Source: an uncultured delta proteobacterium | GTDB taxonomy: Bacteria; Desulfobacterota; Binatia; UBA9968 | Direction: 5' to 3' | Assembly: GCA_963847445.1 (NCBI GenBank) | Contig: CAWJZV010000015.1 | Span: forward strand, 64,001 to 128,000 | Length of the DNA: 64,000 nucleotides | In this document: positions 8,010 to 56,658 of the stretch, piece after piece | How the letters are laid out: the number at the start of each line of letters is the position of its first letter | Numbering within the stretch: the first letter of the stretch is position 1 | Translations under genes and position numbers: made by a program | Notes under the pieces: model-generated | Told to the model about the DNA's origin: nothing | The model's database searches: none | The model's input: the letters and a program-made list of their open reading frames with translations, nothing else

Positions 8010-8112
8010 CTCGTCTGAAAAAGCCAAACTCATCGTGAGGTGAGGGCGGAAAGCCACGGATCAGCAAGGCTTCATACCGAAGCCCGGTCTGACTGCCGAG
8101 CTGCCAAAAGCG
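8010..8112 (+). ncRNA. Cyclic di-GMP-I (GEMM) riboswitch
   Basis: AAGCCAAAC, P2 stem CTCATC-GTGA(GNRA)-GGTGAG, GGCGGAAAGCC junction, P3 with TCAG/CTGA and GGCTTC/GAAGCC, closing CTGCCGAGCTGCC; matches GEMM-I consensus; 40 nt upstream of RBS and ATG 8154. Confidence 0.85.
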
Positions 8113-15575: not shown

Positions 15576-15695
15576 TGTTCCAATCGTTCAAAACGTTCCA
15601 ATCGTTCAAGCCGTGGGAATTGCAGGAACAGACGGTTGCAAGCAACCGTCCGAAATACGTATTGAACGAATTGAACGGCTTGAACATTTTGAACG
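15576..15695. repeat. Inverted pair of tandem 9-mer arrays with an internal palindrome
   Basis: (YGTTCMAAN)x4 at 15576-15611; (NNTTGAACR)x4 at 15660-15695; GACGGTTGC-AA-GCAACCGTC at 15631-15650. Confidence 0.9.
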
Positions 15696-17784: not shown

Positions 17785-17923
17785 CGCCGCAAAGAACGCA
17801 AAGGGCGCAAAGTTAGATTTCTCGCTTCGCTCGAAATGACAAGCCGACAAATGACTGAAGTCATCCGCATTGGGCAAAGAATTCGGCAAATCAGTTTTTG
17901 GGAACTTTGCGTTCTTTGCGGCG
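17785..17923. repeat. Inverted CGCAAAGNN arrays enclosing a second palindromic repeat
   Basis: cgccgcaaagaacgcaaag ... ctttgcgttctttgcggcg; nested agatttctcgcttcgctcgaaatgaca at 17815-17841. Confidence 0.85.
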
Positions 17924-22445: not shown

Positions 22446-22549
22446 GGCCGCAAAGAACGCATAGAACACAAAGGGATGAATTCGGAGTGTACAAGGGGCG
22501 GGTTTGAAACCCGCCATCTTCAAATTGCCTCGTGATCTTCCTGGTGAGA
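22446..22549. repeat. Mosaic of CGCAAAG arm, REP-like palindrome and CTTCGTGGTG-type arm
   Basis: ggccgcaaagaacgcatagaacacaaag; ggggcgggtttgaaacccgcc; ctcgtgatcttcctggtgaga. Confidence 0.7.
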
Positions 22550-23625: not shown

Positions 23626-24645
23626 TTATTTCGGAATCAAGGTGCTGACCAGTTTAGACTTCGTTGTCGGATTCAGTTTGAACAGATCGTCGACTAGCTT
23701 CTTGACCTCTTCGCCGGTGAGCGGGTTGATGTCGAGGTTGGCTTTCTTCGCTTCAGCGACAAATTCCGGATCGGTTAAGGTCTTGGCGAAGGCGCTGCGC
23801 AGGATCTGCAAACGGTCGTTGGCGATGCGCGGGGTCGTCACGTAGACACGGACGACTGCGGCGGGGTCAATGGCGCCGGCGCGCAGCAACAGTTTGGCTT
23901 CCTCGGTTTTGGCCAGATCGAGAGCGAGCGGCGCGTTGGGCAGCTCCGGCAGCTTCTTGGCCGTCACCTGCAAGACGACGTTCACTTCGCCCGCCGGGAT
24001 CGCTTTCGCCCACGCGGTTTTCAATGTCTCCCAGGCCCAGCAGGCGCCGTGCAATTCACCGGCATCCGCCGCCAAGCGAATTTCATTGGTGCCTTTGTAG
24101 CCTTCGACTAATTGCACCGGCAGGTTGAGAGCGCTTTGAATGATCCGCGCGACGTCGCTGGTGCTGTTGCCCGGACTCAAGCCGCCCAATTTGATCGGCG
24201 TCTTCGACGACGCCCATTGCTCCATGTTGGTGACGCCGCTTTCCTTGCGCAGGGCGCAAACCGGATTGTCCTGCACCGGCACGCCCAAGTATTCGAGCTC
24301 GCGCATGTCGAAGTCGATGCCTTTCATGCCGAGGACGCGGCCGAGAATCAATCCGCCGTTGAACATGCCGATGGACAGCCCGTCAGGCTTGGCGCTGCCG
24401 TGGACGTACTTCGCGGCGATCAGCGTGCCGGCGCCGGTCATGTTCTCGACGATCAATGATGGGTTGCCAGGTATATGTTTGCCCATGTGGCGCGCCATGG
24501 CGCGGGTGTAGATGTCGAAGCCGCCGCCGGCGCTGCCGCCGACGATGACGCGAATGACTTTGCCGCGGTAGAATTCTTGAGCCGGCAAGTCTTCGGGCGT
24601 TAGCAGCGCAAGGAGTAGCGTGAATAGCGCCAAGCGTGGTTGCAT
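23626..24645 (-). CDS. Tripartite tricarboxylate transporter substrate-binding protein (Bug/TctC)
   Basis: FYRGKVIRVIVGGSAGGGFD, HIPGNP, KPDGL, GYKGT. Confidence 0.92.
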   Translation of the reverse strand: MQPRLALFTLLLALLTPEDLPAQEFYRGKVIRVIVGGSAGGGFDIYTRAMARHMGKHIPGNPSLIVENMTGAGTLIAAKYVHGSAKPDGLSIGMFNGGLILGRVLGMKGIDFDMRELEYLGVPVQDNPVCALRKESGVTNMEQWASSKTPIKLGGLSPGNSTSDVARIIQSALNLPVQLVEGYKGTNEIRLAADAGELHGACWAWETLKTAWAKAIPAGEVNVVLQVTAKKLPELPNAPLALDLAKTEEAKLLLRAGAIDPAAVVRVYVTTPRIANDRLQILRSAFAKTLTDPEFVAEAKKANLDINPLTGEEVKKLVDDLFKLNPTTKSKLVSTLIPK

Positions 24646-24803
24646 CGTTAAACCTCCGAATGCGGCTGATTATGTTGGAAATCGCGGCCTTGTCAATGAT
24701 TCCGCCTCGTCAAGTTTACCCCGGCGCATTGCCGCTTGACGGCTGTCGTTCACTTCGCGTAGCTTGTGCTCCAATCTCGGTTGAGCTGGAAAGAGGAATC
24801 TCA

Positions 24804-25835
24804 ATGAGACGAAATATTGTTTCGGCTTTGACACTCGCGGCTGTCATGACGTGCGCGCATGCGGCTCATGCCGCCACCGCATCGGCTGATTTTTATCATG
24901 GCAAGGTGATCCGCATCATCGTCGGCTTCTCGGCCGGTGGCGGTTTCGATACTTTCGCGCGCACGGTGGCGCGCTACATGGGCAAATACATTCCAGGTAA
25001 TCCGTCGATTATCGTCGACAATATGCCGGGGGCAGGCAGCTTGATCGCCGCCAATCACATTTACCGTGTCGCCAAACCGGACGGCCTCACCATCGGCGCC
25101 TTCAACGGCAATCAGATCCTTGGCCAGTTGGTCGGCGCCCAGGGCACCAACTTCGACTCGCGCAAGATGGAGTGGATGGGCGCGCCGGGCTATAACCACG
25201 ATCTCTGTGTATTGCACCAGCGCACCGGTATTACCAGCGCCGAGCAATGGATGGCGGCGAAGACGCCGCTCAAGCTCGCCGGCAGCGCGCCCGGCTCGAC
25301 GACTGACGATGTTGCGAAAGTACTGAAAGAAGCGATCGGCCTGCCGATGCGTCTGGTGACCGGCTATAAGGGCACGGCGGATATGCGCATCGCCGTGGAG
25401 TCGGGTGAGATGGACGGACTGTGCGGGTTTTCCTGGGTGTCGGTTAAATCCACTTGGCGCCGAGCAGTGGAATCGGGACAGGCGATTATCATGCTGCAAA
25501 GCGCAGCCAAGGCCCACGCCGACCTGCCCAAGGTGCCGCTGACGATCAGCTTCGCCAAGACGCCCGAGGCGCGCCAATTGATCGAAGCCGGCGTGCATCA
25601 ACCCGGCGCGATCACTTACGGCTATTCGCTGCCGCCGAACACGCCGAAGGAGCGCGTGCAAATTCTGCGCAGAGCATTTATCCAAGCGGTTAAAGATCCC
25701 GATCTATTGAACGACGCCAACAAGGCCAACCTGGAAATCGCCCCGGCATCGGGTGAAGAGATCGCCAACGCCATCGAAAATATGTTCAAGACGCCGCCGG
25801 CGGTGGTGGCGAAGCTGAGGGAAACGCTGAAGTGA
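24804..25835 (+). CDS. Bug/TctC substrate-binding protein
   Basis: GAGG RBS, FYHGKVIRIIVGFSAGGGFD, NMPGAG, KPDGLT. Confidence 0.92.
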   Translation: MRRNIVSALTLAAVMTCAHAAHAATASADFYHGKVIRIIVGFSAGGGFDTFARTVARYMGKYIPGNPSIIVDNMPGAGSLIAANHIYRVAKPDGLTIGAFNGNQILGQLVGAQGTNFDSRKMEWMGAPGYNHDLCVLHQRTGITSAEQWMAAKTPLKLAGSAPGSTTDDVAKVLKEAIGLPMRLVTGYKGTADMRIAVESGEMDGLCGFSWVSVKSTWRRAVESGQAIIMLQSAAKAHADLPKVPLTISFAKTPEARQLIEAGVHQPGAITYGYSLPPNTPKERVQILRRAFIQAVKDPDLLNDANKANLEIAPASGEEIANAIENMFKTPPAVVAKLRETLK

Positions 25836-25845
25836 TGCGATAAAA

Positions 25846-25914
25846 CGTGAGGGGTGAAGGGTAAGGGGTGAGGCGCTGATCGGTCGCCTTACGCTTCACC
25901 CCTTACCCCTTACG
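25846..25914. repeat. Inverted pair of heptamer arrays (GGTRARG x4)
   Basis: cgtgagg ggtgaag ggtaagg ggtgagg cg / cg ccttacg cttcacc ccttacc ccttacg between convergent stops. Confidence 0.9.
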
Positions 25915-25929
25915 ATTTACTGAGATTCG

Positions 25930-26949
25930 TCACTGCTTGACCGTCAGAATGCTGGAGAGCTTGGCGACAGTCTGCGGATTGAGAGCAAACAGGCTGTCAA
26001 CGACTTTTTTGACTTCGTCGCCGTCCAGCGGATTGACTTCCAGGCCGCCCTTTTTAGCTTCGAGTAGAAACTCTGGATCTTTGAGCGTGTTGGCGAAGGC
26101 CTTGCGCAGTATATCGACGCGCTCCTTGGGCGTCTTCGGCGAGGTAACATAAACGCGGGTAACCGCGCTCGGGGCGATGCCGCCGGCGCGAATGATCTGC
26201 TTGAGATCTTCGGTTTTCGCCAAGTCGAGGGCGAGCGGGACATGCTGCAGGTCGGGCTGTTTTTTCGCCGTCACCTGCAGGATTGGATTGACCTCTCCCG
26301 ATTGCAGTGCTTTGGTCCAGGTCGCGCGGATAGATTCCCAAGCCCAGCACGCGCCGCCGAGCTCGCCACTGTCGGCAGCCAGACGAAGATCGGCCGTGCC
26401 CTTGTAACCCTCGACCAATTGGATCGGCAGATTCAAGGTCGCTTTGACGATGCGCACGGCGTCGCTGGTGCTGTTGCCGGGACCGAGTCCGCCCATTTTT
26501 ACCGGAGTCTTTGCCGCCATCCATTGCTCTACGTTGGTGATGCCGGTTTCCTTGCGCAGGACGCAGGCGACGTTGTCCTGGATCGGCACGCCGAGCCATT
26601 GGAACTGGCGGGTATCGAAGTCAAAACCTTTGGGATCGAGCACCTGGCTGAGAATCAAGTAGCCGTTGAAAATCCCGAAGGTGAGCCCGTCCGGCTTTGC
26701 CGCGCTGTGGATATACTTGGCGGCAATCCGCGTCGCCGCGCCGGTCATGTTCTCGACGATGAAAATCGGATTGCCGGGAATATGCTTGCCCATATGGCGC
26801 GTCATCGCCCGCGTGTAAACATCGAAGCCGCCGCCGGCCGTGCCACCGACGATGACGCGCACGGTTTTGCCTTTGTAGAAATCGTCGGCGCAGAGGGCCT
26901 GCGACGTTATAGCTGCCAACAAGAGAACGCAGACCAATATTATCTTCAT
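25930..26949 (-). CDS. Bug/TctC substrate-binding protein
   Basis: FYKGKTVRVIVGGTAGGGFD; close paralogue of 23626-24645. Confidence 0.92.
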   Translation of the reverse strand: MKIILVCVLLLAAITSQALCADDFYKGKTVRVIVGGTAGGGFDVYTRAMTRHMGKHIPGNPIFIVENMTGAATRIAAKYIHSAAKPDGLTFGIFNGYLILSQVLDPKGFDFDTRQFQWLGVPIQDNVACVLRKETGITNVEQWMAAKTPVKMGGLGPGNSTSDAVRIVKATLNLPIQLVEGYKGTADLRLAADSGELGGACWAWESIRATWTKALQSGEVNPILQVTAKKQPDLQHVPLALDLAKTEDLKQIIRAGGIAPSAVTRVYVTSPKTPKERVDILRKAFANTLKDPEFLLEAKKGGLEVNPLDGDEVKKVVDSLFALNPQTVAKLSSILTVKQ

Positions 26950-26978: not shown

Positions 26979-27587
26979 CTACAGGATCGCTTTTACCGAT
27001 GGCCGTTGTTTCATGCGCTCGAACCAAGCCGTTAGTTTCGGCAACGCCGCGCTTGGCAACACACCGTATTGTTCCAGACGAGGAAAACGCGGCAACATGG
27101 CGATGTCGGTGAGACTGTAATCGCCCAAGAAGTATGGCTTTTCGCCAAGGGCGGCTTCGAGATATTGCAGCCTGGTCGCTACTTCTTTTCTGGTTTCAGC
27201 GATGAGCTTTTGATCGCGCTCAGCTTCGTTCTTCTTGATCATCTCTCCGCGCAGCGCCCAGTAGGGTTCGTGGAGAAAATTCAAAAAATAGTCGATCAGT
27301 ATTCTCCCGCGGGCGCGCAGATAAGGGTCTTTCGGCTGCAGCGGCGGGTTGGGATATTTCTCGTCGAGATATTCGTTGATGATGCACGACTCGAACAAGA
27401 GTTGGCCGTCATCGTCGATGACCGGAATCTTGCCGTAGGGATTGCGCTTGAGATGCTCAAGACTTTTCTGCTCCATCTTCCCAAGCTTGACCCATATCCC
27501 TTCCCAGGGGAGTCCTTTTTCCGCCAAGACGATTTTGACACGATCGCAATTGGTCGACGGCACGTCGTGATAGAGTGTTATCGGCAT
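26979..27587 (-). CDS. Glutathione S-transferase family protein
   Basis: NPYGKIPVI, LFESCIINEYLDEKYP, YSLTDI. Confidence 0.92.
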   Translation of the reverse strand: MPITLYHDVPSTNCDRVKIVLAEKGLPWEGIWVKLGKMEQKSLEHLKRNPYGKIPVIDDDGQLLFESCIINEYLDEKYPNPPLQPKDPYLRARGRILIDYFLNFLHEPYWALRGEMIKKNEAERDQKLIAETRKEVATRLQYLEAALGEKPYFLGDYSLTDIAMLPRFPRLEQYGVLPSAALPKLTAWFERMKQRPSVKAIL

Positions 27588-27596
27588 AGGGCCTCC

Positions 27597-27631
27597 AATT
27601 CCATATTACAAATTCCAGATTCCAAATTTCG
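27597..27631. repeat. Left heptamer arm of the four-helix-bundle cassette
   Basis: aattcca tattaca aattcca gattcca aatttcg. Confidence 0.9.
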
Positions 27632-27640
27632 GATTGAACA

Positions 27641-28115
27641 CTAGCTGCGGCGTTTTTGGCCGGTTTCCTCGGTTGCTTGCTTGGCCAACGTCGATCTTGA
27701 AGCCTTTGGCTTGGATACAGCATTAAGATGTTTTTGACCTCGGAATTCGGACCGTTTCACTTGCTCAATCCAGCCATAGAGTTGTTTTGAGATGGATTCG
27801 CAGCAAGCCCTAGAGAGCCGCAATTTGATTTTTATGATTCGCGAAAACCTTTCATGAATAGAGGACGCGGAGCATGGACCGAACTTCTCCTGCTGATCCT
27901 CGAGAAATATAGAGAAACGCGAGTAATTCATTATTGCCGCCACGCTCGAATCCTTCAGCGATGTTATTGGATACCGATCTGGCGGCTCGCTCCAATTGGT
28001 TGCGGAGGCCGTAGTGATGGCGAAAGAGATCGTCACCGGTGAACTCCAGCACTGACTGGGCCAGCCGGGCAGCGTCCTGCCATACTGGCAGGTCTTCGAA
28101 ATGGTGATAAGTCAT
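27641..28115 (-). CDS. Four helix bundle protein (23S rRNA IVS protein / Avd-like family), frameshifted
   Basis: MTYHHFEDLPVWQDA, YGLRNQLERAARSVSNNIAEGFERG, FLYISRGSAGEVRSML; continues CESISKQLYGWIEQVK in ORF 27641-28036. Confidence 0.9.
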
Positions 28116-28190
28116 CGCGGTAAGCAGAATTACAAGCTTCGGCAAGGTGCTGTCAAACGCTTTAATACGCTCGGTTGGGGAGGCGCAGTC

Positions 28191-28232
28191 TCCAATCTGG
28201 AATTTGGAATTTGTAATCTGGAATTTGCAATT
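28191..28232. repeat. Right heptamer arm, inverted relative to 27597-27631
   Basis: tccaatc tggaatt tggaatt tgtaatc tggaatt tgcaatt. Confidence 0.9.
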
Positions 28233-28234
28233 GG

Positions 28235-29150
28235 TCAGCGTGTCTTTCTCGCGCTAACCAGGACCACCGAGCCGATGATCAAACCGGCGGCGAGCTAGTA
28301 CCCGCAGGGCCAGAATTTCCTTGCCAAGAAAGTAGCCGAGGATGATTGCGACCAACGGATTGACGTAGGAGTAGGTCGAGACCAATGGGATCGGCGCGTT
28401 GCGCAGGAGCCAGGCGTAGGCGACGAAGGCAATGGGACCGATCACGGTCAGATAGACCCAGCCGATGGCGGAGCGCGATGAAACTTGCGCGGGATCGAAT
28501 CCGTTCACTTCGCCGACGGCGAGCGCGATGATGAGCAACGCGGCGCCGCCACTGAGCATTTCCATGCCGGTGATGAGAAGCGGGGATGATGGCAGCTTGG
28601 CGGTCTTGCCGTAAGATCGAACCGGCGGCCCAGAAGAGCGAGCCGAAAACGACTACGACGGCGCCGGCAAAACTGTTTGGCGTGGTGCCGTTGGCGCGAC
28701 CAGCCAATCAGCAACACGGCGCCGCAGAAGCCGATGACGATCCCAGACAGAGCCCGCGGCCCAGGTTTTTCTCCGCCGCGCCGGAGGAAGTCGAATAGCA
28801 ACATCCAGAGCGGACAGGTGGCGACCAGCAAGGCGGCCAGACTCGATGGAATGTAGCGCGCCGCCCAGACCACGGCGCCGTTGCCGCCGACGAGTAAGAG
28901 CAGTGCCGATCACCGTGGCGCTGCGCCATTCGTGCCGGCTCGGCGTTGGATCGCCGCATAGTCGCCGCCAGAGATACAGCACAGCGCCGGAAATGATGAA
29001 GCGTGCCGCGGCTGACAAGAAACGGCGGTGTGGTCTCGACGGTGAAGCGAATCGCCAGGTAGGTGGAACCCCAAATCAGATAGACCGCGCTTAACGCCGT
29101 CCAGATCAGTACCGATGAGCTAACGCGCTGAGACGAAGCGGTTGTCTCTG
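28235..29150 (-). CDS. EamA/DMT transporter (YedA-like), multiple frameshifts; start approximate
   Basis: VYLIWGSTYLAIR, AALLVATCPLW, YSYVNPLVAIILG across ORFs. Confidence 0.88.
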
Positions 29151-29152
29151 AT

Positions 29153-29685
29153 TCACAACTGCACGCCTTCATGGCGTAGCAGCCAGCGCTTCAAGTCTAG
29201 TCCGGTCTTGCCGCAATAGCCGCCGAGAGTGCCGTCGCTGGCGACGACGCGGTGGCAGGGGATGACGATCGGAATCGGATTGCGGCCCAAGGCTTGGCCG
29301 ACGGGCGGCTGGATTTCGGCCGTCCCATTTCTTGGGCAATACGCTGATAGCTCCAAACTTCTCCCCATGGAATCCGGCTCGTGACGGCCAAGACTTCACG
29401 CTGAAACGGCGTGAGCGAGGATAGATCCAGCGGTAGGTCGAAGCTGGTCGTCGCCCTGAAAAGTATTCTGCAATTGGCTGCAAACTTGAATTGACAAGTG
29501 ATCTGGCGATCTCGTTGGGCTCGGGATTTGAAAAGAGACTTAGGTCCGGTTCAAGGCGGCCAAACTTGATGGCGCATAGTCCGCGGCCGTTAGTGGCGAT
29601 GTATAGTCGACCCAGCGGCGTGGATATTTCCGACCAGAAGTCGGAGTGTTTCGCCGCCGTTGCCGTCGAGATCGGTCTCTGTCAT
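29153..29685 (-). CDS. ogt: Methylated-DNA--protein-cysteine methyltransferase, frameshifted
   Basis: STPLGRL, EYFSG, IPWGEVWSY, VGQALGRNPIPIVIPCHRVV. Confidence 0.88.
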
Positions 29686-30439: not shown

Positions 30440-31475
30440 ATGCGGTCAATGCTTAAATCAACGTTCGCTACTGTGAGCATCGGCGGTGTTGCTTGCGGTC
30501 GATCAGAGTCTGGCGCAGGCACCTTATTACGCCGGCAAGACGATCACCATCGTGCGCGGCGGCGGCGCCGGCGGTTCGGGGGAGTTTCAGTCACGCGCGC
30601 TGATACCTTATCTGAAAAAATATATCCCCGGCAACCCGAACATCGTCATGGAGTTTATGGACGGCGCCTCGGGGCGCAAGGCGGCGAATTATTTTTACAC
30701 CGCGAAACCTGACGGCTTGAAGATCGCTTCGGCGGGAAACATGATTTCGGGACCGATACTCGGCCTGTCGGGCAGCAACTACGATATCGAAAAGTTTCCT
30801 TACATCGGCTCGACGGAAACCGGCAATCCCTACGTGTTCTTTAGCCGCAAGGTCGGCAACTTCGATACCCTCGACAAGGTTCGTAATGCGCGCGGCTTGC
30901 GCGTCGGCGCTCACTCGGTGGGCCACTCGGTCTACATCACCGGCCGCATGTTCGCGCATCTGTTGGACTTGAAAGAGCCGCGCTTCGTGGTCGGCTTCAA
31001 CGACCCGGAGATGGACATTGCGCTCGCTAACGGCGAACTGGACGGGCGCACGTCGGGCAATATCGATAGCGTCCTCAAAGATCTCCGCGACCAGGTTTAT
31101 TTCCATGCGACGATCTCCAATCCCAAGGGTCGCTTCGACTCGCGCCTGCCGGGACTACCCGACCTCGACAGTTTCGCCAAGAACGACCGCGAGCGCAAAG
31201 TGATCGACTTGTTTCGCGCCTTTCAGGTGCCGCGCTGGCCGCATCATCTGGCGCCGGGCACGCCGGCGGAACTGGTGAAGATCCTGCGCGACGCGATGGC
31301 ACGGACTTTCAAAGATCCCGAGTTCCAGCAGGAGTTCAAGAAGCTGATGGGGCGCGAGCCGTCGCCGCTGACGGGAGAAGAGGTGCAGAAGGTGGTGAAA
31401 GAGTTGCCGCGCGATCCGGAGACAGTCGCGCTTTACAAACTGTACGCCGAGGGCGGCGCGCTGCCGCCGCGCTGA
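30440..31475 (+). CDS. Bug/TctC-like substrate-binding protein (signal-peptide frameshift)
   Basis: YYAGKTITIV, KYIPGNP, KPDGL, PGTPAELVKILR. Confidence 0.88.
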
Positions 31476-43586: not shown

Positions 43587-43609
43587 GGGAACTCCTTTCG
43601 GGGTTAGGT

Positions 43610-43691
43610 TGGAGTGATGGAGTGTTGGAGTACTGGAGCATTGGGTTTATCCGGACCCATCACTCCACCACTCCAGAACTCCATCACTCCA
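43610..43691. repeat. Inverted TGGAG octamer arrays (same family as 33274)
   Basis: tggagtga tggagtgt tggagtac tggagcat tgggt ... accca tcactcca ccactcca gaactcca tcactcca. Confidence 0.92.
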
Positions 43692-50907: not shown

Positions 50908-50939
50908 AATTTCAAATTACAAATTGCAGATTTCAAACT
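50908..50939. repeat. Solo heptamer arm of the AATTNCA family
   Basis: aatttca aattaca aattgca gatttca aact. Confidence 0.8.
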
Positions 50940-56528: not shown

Positions 56529-56658
56529 GTTCAAGGTTCCAGGTTCAAACGTTCAAGGTTGTCGGACTTCGGGCCGCTTCATTGGCGCCAAATTTGCGAG
56601 GCTAACCTCGAATTCCGAACATTATTGAGCTCTTGAACCTTGAACTTTTGAACGGAAC
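56529..56658. repeat. Inverted GTTCAAG / CTTGAAC heptamer arrays
   Basis: gttcaag gttccag gttcaaac gttcaag ... cttgaac cttgaac ttttgaac ggaac. Confidence 0.85.

Follow-up and report, generated by a model that had tools for sequence, protein, structure and literature searches.

The 64,000-nucleotide stretch analysed here, called the window throughout, is positions 64,001 to 128,000 of contig CAWJZV010000015.1 of an uncultured delta proteobacterium (GCA_963847445.1; Desulfobacterota; Binatia; UBA9968). Between an EamA-family transporter gene and a glutathione S-transferase (GST) gene it contains a small cassette (positions 27595 to 28234), in which two arrays of tandem heptamers, inverted to each other, enclose a gene of the four-helix-bundle family PF05635. 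This feature is real and not random, and we read it as a decayed copy of a selfish cassette of the intervening sequence (IVS) type that lies outside rRNA, and as one member of a widespread class. In the following, G-numbers are genomes of relatives (G000 is this genome), L-numbers are fetched loci, C-numbers are contigs of this genome and X-numbers are sequencing runs. The components of the locus, given in the direction of the gene, are these:

28235..29172, minus strand: EamA-family transporter gene, directly upstream; at least four reading frames here; stop 28235-28237.
28194..28234, minus strand: arm on the upstream (5') side as the gene runs; some 5.6 heptamers, of TGGAATT type when read on the + strand; ends with aattgg and abuts the EamA stop.
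28129..28156, minus strand: possible internal sigma-70-like promoter, recognised by eye; TTGACA 28151-28156, 16-nt spacer, TGTAAT 28129-28134.
27641..28115, minus strand: PF05635/TIGR02436 pseudogene; ATG 28113-28115.
27595..27628, minus strand: arm on the downstream (3') side; some 4.6 heptamers, of AATTCCA type when read on the + strand; begins with ccaatt, and its outer end meets the GST GGAGG.
26979..27596, minus strand: GST gene, directly downstream; intact, 202 aa, with its own GGAGG at 27592-27596.

A repeat search of the window paired positions 27597-27628 with 28194-28225 (32 nt, 91% complementary), and the pair extended to 27595-27642 and 28187-28234 (48 nt, 79% complementary). Hand alignment of the four core units gave 26 of 28 identical bases between the right arm and the reverse-complemented left arm. 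The variant tgtaat unit is the third unit in both arms, and the outer termini read ccaatt on the left and aattgg on the right. The 26 of 28 agreement, the shared place of the variant unit and the termini had been noted in a preliminary description made from the sequence, and were confirmed by the hand alignment, the repeat search and inspection of the sequence. Tandem Repeats Finder gave period 7 for both arrays, with 4.6 copies in the left and 5.6 copies in the right one. Allowing at most two mismatches, the two-unit heptamer motif was found 13 times in the window (1.53 expected; maximum of five in 100 shuffles), and nine of these matches fall within the two arms.

The cassette takes up exactly the space from the EamA stop to the ribosome-binding site of GST, a claim of the same description that the coordinates and the orthologous EamA C-termini support. 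The EamA stop (28235-28237) lies in the frame chosen by match to these C-termini, the GST gene starts at 27585-27587, and its GGAGG (27592-27596) follows directly after the last arm unit. In the predicted structure of the minus-strand RNA of the whole unit, the arms were paired in both the minimum-energy and the centroid fold (z = -3.2), and none of 20 shuffles folded as well. The ends of the element are thus predicted to form a long stem around the open reading frame (ORF), as expected of an IVS, and the tandem heptamers beside the ORF, with period 7 in both arms, are the feature of IVSs of the Coxiella type.

The enclosed ORF (27852-28145, minus strand) scored 82.1 bits with PF05635 (cut-off 33.8), but the match covers just positions 1-80 of the 106 in the profile. 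An intact orthologue (L063) matched TIGR02436, "four helix bundle protein", with 82.4 bits (cut-off 24) and PDB entry 2gsc_A (XCC0516, a pentameric toroid) with E = 1.2e-11, a sequence match that suggests the four-helix-bundle fold. Bacteroides thetaiotaomicron, a control, matched the family as well. The four-helix-bundle family named in the preliminary description is therefore right, the matches being to PF05635 in the window and to TIGR02436 in the intact orthologue, but with the correction that the gene is not intact here and is a pseudogene. An in-frame TGA at 27852-27854 stands where the intact orthologues have a tryptophan codon, and one extra base near 27812 creates an in-frame TAG (27810-27812). 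Because of the same base the basic tail and the last helix are read in a different frame, with its end at 27641-27643, and no complete ORF over all four helices is present in this copy. Contigs of close relatives from two metagenomes do not have the extra base at 27812 (the TGA lies outside that comparison), so this lesion is either strain-specific or an assembly error. The EamA gene is likewise split over at least four frames in the window, while it is intact with about 290 aa in G014, G007, G008 and G035, and a further window-specific extra base at 28612 within it is missing from the metagenome contigs. These EamA frame breaks mark either a pseudogene or assembly indels, and indel errors may be present in the assembly. 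Apparent frameshifts are also seen in an SDR gene on C30 (about 76.7-77.5 kb) and in a gene for a substrate-binding protein on C4 (about 219-220 kb).

Intact orthologues of 145-152 aa occupy the EamA-GST site in G002, G007, G008 and G009. Among these four, dN/dS was 0.07-0.13, with dS above 1 in five of six pairs and undefined in the sixth; judged from these codon comparisons, the protein is under purifying selection where it is intact. The arm unit type is conserved among the four despite dS above 1.

The layout is not restricted to this locus. The genome (7.19 Mb, 48 contigs) contains 11 PF05635 matches, and nine of them reached the threshold of at least 20 in the inverted-flank score, compared with 42 of 1500 random windows. 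A blind scan for split inverted array pairs, both arms of which stand without a close partner, yielded nine rows at loops of 400-600 nt; eight of these enclose PF05635 (seven distinct loci) and the ninth encloses a remnant of PF13366. Every cassette has its own unit. The cassette gene is co-directional with both neighbours in the window, and a crude gene call shows the same for six or seven of the 11 loci.

In the relatives, 22 of 28 loci scored above all 50 shuffles. A broad sample of 80 loci was taken from Acidobacteriota, Verrucomicrobiota, Planctomycetota, Bacteroidota, Chloroflexota, Ignavibacteria, Gemmatimonadota, Cyanobacteria and others, and 44 of its 77 testable loci scored above all 100 shuffles. 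Matched flank pairs reached 20 at 41 of 75 loci, against 27 of 750 mismatched pairs, a null that preserves repeat content. Strongly periodic arms were found at 37 of the 41 passing loci, with period 7 in 26, period 8 in eight and period 9 in three. The enrichment of inverted arrays around homologous genes, which had been proposed as a check, is therefore strong in the genome, in the genus and across phyla, and we have high confidence in the anatomy and generality of the layout.

The arm type follows the protein clade weakly but significantly overall (Spearman 0.18 over 39 loci; nine of 2000 permutations as high), and clearly in the window protein's own clade, whose arm-bearing relatives in Acidobacteriota, Verrucomicrobiota and Planctomycetota carry the same TGAGATT/TGAAATT-type heptamers. 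This tracking suggests joint travel of gene and arms, and speaks against a gene that lands in host hairpins at random. Counting arm polarity across phyla by regular expression was uninformative, since the units match either way round.

The closest paralogue of the window gene in this genome (C27:131380-131703; L004:1483-1968) is intact with 162 aa. A heptamer array lies within its coding sequence, encoding roughly ...NYRSQISNFTT..., and is inverted relative to arrays of the same type that lie upstream and downstream. These outer two arrays are direct to each other, so the locus does not pass the simple inverted-flank test.

A second gene family was found in the same kind of surroundings. At loci L154-L181, 22 of 26 PF13366 (PDDEXK_3; GxxExxY-type nuclease) genes of relatives are bracketed by inverted tandem arrays. 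The three PF13366 genes of this genome (C18:483-770, C27:90187-90525 and C46:333597-333893) are all bracketed by eye, one of them only partly, and two of the three have in-frame stops. Members of this family carry the NCBI name "GxxExxY protein". Their arm families are distinct (CACGAAGnn, CGCAAAGnn and others) and are present also among the compact hairpins of this genome. Two single CGCAAAGAA-type arrays stand in the window at 17788-17812 and 22449-22473, about 4.6 kb apart and in direct orientation; their unit family is that of the arms of PF13366 genes elsewhere in the genome.

The history of the EamA-GST site was followed in 24 loci fetched by the GST protein, of which the 17 with EamA adjoining GST were read (L049-L052, L054, L055 and L062 were left out, the EamA gene being absent, about 1.4 kb distant or lost at a contig end). 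Claims that use G005 rest on an unpublished genome (L021, L037, L059, L157, L171). The states found were:

Intact cassette: G002, G007, G008, G009 (4 of 17).
Full-length but broken: G000, this window (1 of 17).
Both arms present, gene largely deleted: G004, G031, G005 (3 of 17).
One arm, or most of one, lost: G035, G014 (2 of 17).
Degenerate traces: G013, G042 (2 of 17).
No trace: G039, G038, G001, G015, G037 (5 of 17).

Occupied, decayed and empty states of the site thus exist in sister genomes, where the preliminary description had advised looking for empty ones. Traces of the cassette occur in close and distant congeners (GST identity from 94% down to 63%), and would therefore go back to one old insertion that was inherited vertically and decayed repeatedly. 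The suggestion that the cassette is mobile does not hold for this site, where the same-site comparison shows it to be old and vertically inherited, not recently mobile. In G031, G005 and G035 the loops of the remnants have kept the promoter-like site as well as the gene's first codons, so the direction of change was from cassette to hairpin, by deletion.

Other sites of this genome gave similar pictures, in relatives that were found through the gene, which biases the sample toward occupied sites. At C30:552486-552536 there is a compact CGTTCAAAT-type hairpin here and a full cassette with the same arm type in G011 (L032), and at C30:76502-76667 a TGGAGTGA-type hairpin here and a full cassette with related units in G013 (L033). 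At C24:126611-126651 about 40 nt without arms are found in this genome, while G014, G018, G015 and G006 have a cassette; the flanks are 94.5% and 85% identical between this genome and G014.

Arrays without a gene are far more abundant. We found 236 compact hairpins of tandem 7-9-mers in the genome. For the most part 175 of them lie outside crude genes, even though such genes make up 77.5% of the genome. These 175 favour convergent spacers and avoid divergent ones (48 convergent and 19 divergent, against a background of 881 and 915 of 4682). The window contains the following, for which no strand is given:

15577..15685: compact gene-less hairpin of tandem 9-mers (GTTCAAnnn type); the unit type is that of the arms of two C30 cassettes.
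25847..25913: compact gene-less hairpin of GTGAGGG-type heptamers with a 9-nt loop; same site in G004, G035 and G008.
43608..43691: compact hairpin without a gene, built of TGGAGTGA-type 8-mers in tandem.
50908..50937: solitary array of AATTTCA / AATTACA units, a heptamer family shared with the cassette arms; no partner arm was found nearby.
56529..56653: inverted arrays of GTTCAAGG type around a loop of about 60 nt, without a gene.

The unit of the hairpin at 25847-25913 resembles the arms of another four-helix-bundle subfamily in congeners. At this site (L183-L187) the array is expanded to about ten units in G036, a hairpin of a different unit type is found in G002, and no cassette is present in the relatives compared (G004, G035, G008, G036, G002). 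The earlier idea that gene-less arrays are empty forms of the cassette was therefore borne out in part: it agrees with the loci where the gene is deleted and the arms are kept (G031, G005) and with the two C30 sites, but the hairpin at 25847-25913 has no relative with a cassette.

The metagenome and RNA runs compared were all contigs, and no run contained more than 0.33 of the sampled words. No RNA ends or cleavage were observed in them, and in the RNA libraries (X16, X18) the depth, the cover gaps and the ends of contigs are no guide to expression or processing. Contig depth over the arm bins 27571-27631 and 28181-28241 was several-fold to about 100-fold above the flanks (X1, X2, X16, X18), and arm-to-arm joints with loops of 12-29 nt and sides of 24-30 nt were seen in contigs of X1, X16 and X18. 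Compact hairpins of other loci or other organisms are the probable source of the joints. From the raised depth and the joints, communities of biofilter, soil and sediment seem to contain such heptamer arrays in multiple copies.

An Rfam scan of the window gave no family match at the arms or at any hairpin; its sole hit was a c-di-GMP-I-GGC riboswitch aptamer (RF03167) at 8014-8109 (+), with 65.7 bits against a gathering score of 59. From their translations, several ORFs at 24636-26949 and 30486-31475 look like paralogous substrate-binding proteins of the TctC/Bug type.

The closest known counterpart is the IVS in helix 45 of the Coxiella burnetii 23S rRNA, which is described as carrying an S23p ORF, of the same family as PF05635, in the loop of a stem (Warrier et al. 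2016, PMC4990558). According to this source, three tandem heptamers and a degenerate fourth precede the ORF and differ in copy number from strain to strain, the first repeat is where RNase III cuts, and the RNA part is conserved whereas the ORF decays; Leptospira, Brucella and Xanthomonas are named as further IVS-bearing taxa. The preliminary description had linked the cassette to rRNA IVSs through the protein family, and with tandem heptamers reported before the same gene family in Coxiella (PMC4990558) the link is closer than claimed. As in the 23S IVS so described, the window gene belongs to this family and lies inside a long stem predicted from the element's ends. Unlike a 23S IVS, the window element lies between the protein-coding EamA and GST genes and not in helix 25 or 45 of 23S rRNA, and unlike the Coxiella IVS both of its arms are clear tandem arrays, with processing that is only presumed here. 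In the genome's own 23S rRNA gene, which is 3007 nt long where the model has 2925 positions, there is neither an insert of ORF size nor a hairpin of tandem arrays. By our verdict the cassette is of the known IVS type, and the new part is its occurrence outside rRNA.

Avd, the accessory protein of diversity-generating retroelements (DGR; NF033474), is placed in the same Pfam superfamily of four-helix bundles (PMC10053308). In this genome NF033474 gave weak hits of 28.6 and 34.9 bits in two other paralogue subfamilies (equivalog cut-off 80) and no hit in the window cassette's own clade. Unlike Avd, the cassette has no reverse transcriptase beside it: the single reverse-transcriptase gene found in the genome (two adjacent matches) lies on another contig, C45. 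By the NF033474 score and the neighbouring genes the cassette is not part of a DGR, template and variable repeats not having been searched for.

Intergenic heptamer arrays are also described elsewhere. In Xanthomonas, 70-75 convergent pairs of GGGAATC arrays that can form stem-loops are reported, mostly conserved in place between species (Rehm et al. 2015, PMC4692102, which also covers heptamer repeats in Nostoc), and TAACTGA repeats are reported in Beggiatoaceae (PMC4679880). The reported GGGAATC unit is one base off the window unit, and both are intergenic tandem heptamers. In the parts of the two papers available to us the repeats are treated as G-quadruplex elements (discussed for Xanthomonas) or regulatory elements, unlike the cassette reading given here, and the passages of PMC4692102 (terms "S23" and "hypothetical protein") and PMC4679880 (terms "four helix" and "23S") held no link to PF05635. 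A figure legend in PMC10910872 lists "23S rRNA IVP" among CRISPR-array-associated proteins, an association that may reflect the flanking arrays. In the open-access literature we found no description of inverted tandem arrays around PF05635 or PF13366 genes outside rRNA, subscription journals lying mostly outside this search.

Among mobile and repeated elements, the cassette shares with MITEs (miniature transposable elements with inverted repeats) and foldback transposons the inverted ends, the many short gene-less copies and the few copies with an internal gene. The ends of foldback elements are built of tandem subrepeats. Unlike MITEs and foldback transposons, the cassette shows no transposase, no target-site duplication (by eye) and no recent movement at EamA-GST. 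Repetitive extragenic palindromes (REP) and bacterial interspersed mosaic elements (BIME), with their RAYT (Y1) transposases, are comparable as abundant intergenic hairpin-forming repeats, often at gene 3' ends, but the window arms are tandem 7-9-mers and not single imperfect palindromes. Four Y1_Tnp matches were found in the genome, two of them clear, without matching inverted arrays within 2.5 kb, so the cassette does not belong to the REP/RAYT system. Integron gene cassettes resemble the window cassette as small promoter-poor genes bounded by a structured repeat, in operon-like arrays. Unlike attC, a single imperfect palindrome at one end that needs an integrase and attI, the ends of our cassette are complementary to each other, and unlike integron cassettes the cassettes here are scattered singly between housekeeping genes.

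By homology with the rRNA IVSs, the cassette would act at the level of RNA. In a read-through transcript the two arms would pair into a stem of about 30 bp, and this stem would be a substrate of RNase III, as in the homologous 23S rRNA IVS, so that the cassette RNA would be cut out of the host message; the excision would limit the damage to the host. The RNase III step is proposed because the homologous rRNA IVS is processed in this way, and an RNase III gene is present in this genome. Replication slippage in the tandem units could lengthen the stem and keep its register. As DNA, the inverted arms would favour hairpin-mediated deletion, which would account for the near-clean losses and the many compact hairpins. 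We lean, with only slightly better than even confidence, toward such an RNA-processing mechanism of arm pairing and RNase III cutting.

Several findings weigh against the proposal. The mismatches in the stems carry no mark of the RNA strand: we counted 85 G.U against 96 A.C in the 72 cassettes that passed the arm filter out of 114 (p = 0.46), and 69 against 66 in 108 compact hairpins between co-directional genes (p = 0.86). This balance fits maintenance at the DNA level as well as, or better than, selection for RNA pairing. Covariation among orthologous arms was not seen (complementarity 21.3 within species, 20.8 across species); at this scale the arms are conserved rather than covarying. The promoter-like site TTGACA-16-TGTAAT lies in this sub-lineage between the upstream arm and the ATG and is kept in the cassette remnants of G035, G031, G005 and G013. 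It was not flagged in a consensus promoter scan of the window, because position 2 of its second hexamer breaks the scan rule. With a promoter inside the upstream arm, the gene's own transcript might lack that arm, in which case the arms could pair only in transcripts that read through from EamA. At the cassettes we found neither a transposase nor a target-site duplication nor any other sign of insertion. The architecture is common but not universal: 34 of the 75 broad loci scored below 20, and on reading the table the closest homologues of the window protein in other phyla stand mostly among the low scorers.

The mismatch balance, the missing covariation and the promoter-like site make a DNA-level role of the arms, through hairpin deletion or a recombinase, a serious rival. 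The cassette would then be a foldback or terminal-inverted-repeat element whose arrays act as hairpins, cruciforms or sites of an enzyme acting in trans when the element inserts, excises or is copied, template switching would keep the arms complementary, and RNA pairing would be incidental. The equal frequency of G.U and A.C in cassettes and compact hairpins alike speaks for it, as do the near-clean losses (the empty C24 site, and the deletion in G035 that on reading has short matching end letters) and the wealth of gene-less copies, 175 of 236 hairpins lying mostly outside crude genes. The array copy number at one site varies by species, up to the roughly ten units of G036, and one cassette type stands at two sites of this genome, C30:251591 and C30:274553. 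Eukaryotic foldback transposons also have inverted repeats made of tandem subrepeats, and most of their copies are non-coding. Against these points, no recombinase was found inside or beside the cassettes, the Y1-transposase matches are without matching arrays as described above, and occupied and empty sites compared by eye show no target-site duplication. The cassette has been stable at EamA-GST since before most of the genus diverged, and the homologous rRNA IVS is processed as RNA. On this evidence we regard a purely DNA-level element as unlikely, though it deserves attention, and RNA-level and DNA-level roles of the arms are not mutually exclusive.

A different order of events is conceivable, in which hairpins of tandem repeats, a repeat class of the host or an independent one in the spacers at gene 3' ends, came first and served as the target, and small selfish genes (PF05635 and PF13366) inserted preferentially into their loops, much as the tips of helices 25 and 45 of 23S rRNA hold IVSs. 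The two C30 sites, where a compact hairpin here corresponds to a cassette of the same arm type in L032 or L033, would agree with this order, as would the wide variation of arm units between cassettes, the different hairpin types at one orthologous site (G002 against the others) and the 236 hairpins that far outnumber the 11 plus 3 genes. However, the arm unit type tracks the protein clade, also across phyla and across sites, and the PF13366 cassettes have arm families of their own. The remnant loops of G031, G005 and G035, with promoter and first codons, point from cassette to hairpin, and by eye the loop of the C30:552486-552536 hairpin starts like the 5' interior of the G011 cassette. Insertion into pre-existing hairpins is accordingly improbable.

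It might also be speculated that the arrays, as RNA or DNA, are binding sites of the encoded four-helix-bundle oligomer, for autoregulation or packaging, and that the complementarity of the arms is secondary. Among orthologues the arm sequence, and not just its pairing, is kept while synonymous sites are saturated, the arm type correlates with the protein clade, and Avd, whose family link was cited above, is a nucleic-acid-binding accessory protein. But the unrelated PF13366 family shares the architecture, the arms outlast the loss of the gene, and the correlation (0.18) is weak and confounded by shared descent, which leaves this explanation with very little probability. Coincidence of unrelated simple repeats or terminators flanking a small gene would be helped by the richness of the genome in tandem arrays (3770 merged), but we give it almost no credence, since all enrichment tests contradict it (nine of 11 in this genome, 41 of 75 broad flank pairs, the motif count and the blind scan), the variant unit stands in the same position in both arms, and a terminator scan at the arms found no T-run terminator.

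Under the preferred reading, of an IVS-type cassette with processing at the RNA level, a wider proposal may be made. PF05635 and PF13366 genes may be the cargo of one pan-bacterial class of selfish cassettes that are ended by inverted 7-9-mer arrays and shed via RNase III by any host transcript. A special case, arisen by landing in rRNA, would be the ORF-bearing 23S IVSs, and the abundant, unexplained 7-9-mer hairpins of many bacterial genomes (for example the GGGAATC type of Xanthomonas, perhaps also the cyanobacterial heptamers) would be gene-less descendants. We offer this as a tentative possibility that we would sooner doubt than expect. The cassette reading itself links three topics that are treated separately in the open-access papers searched, namely the ORF-bearing 23S IVSs, the very large PF05635 family outside rRNA and retroelements, which lacks a functional explanation, and the excess of intergenic heptamer repeats and hairpins. 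If this reading holds, it would explain why repeat finders list PF05635 proteins beside "arrays", would give a testable origin for the intergenic heptamer hairpins of bacteria, and would supply a testable rule for how a selfish gene can live inside an operon or an rRNA gene without destroying the host gene.

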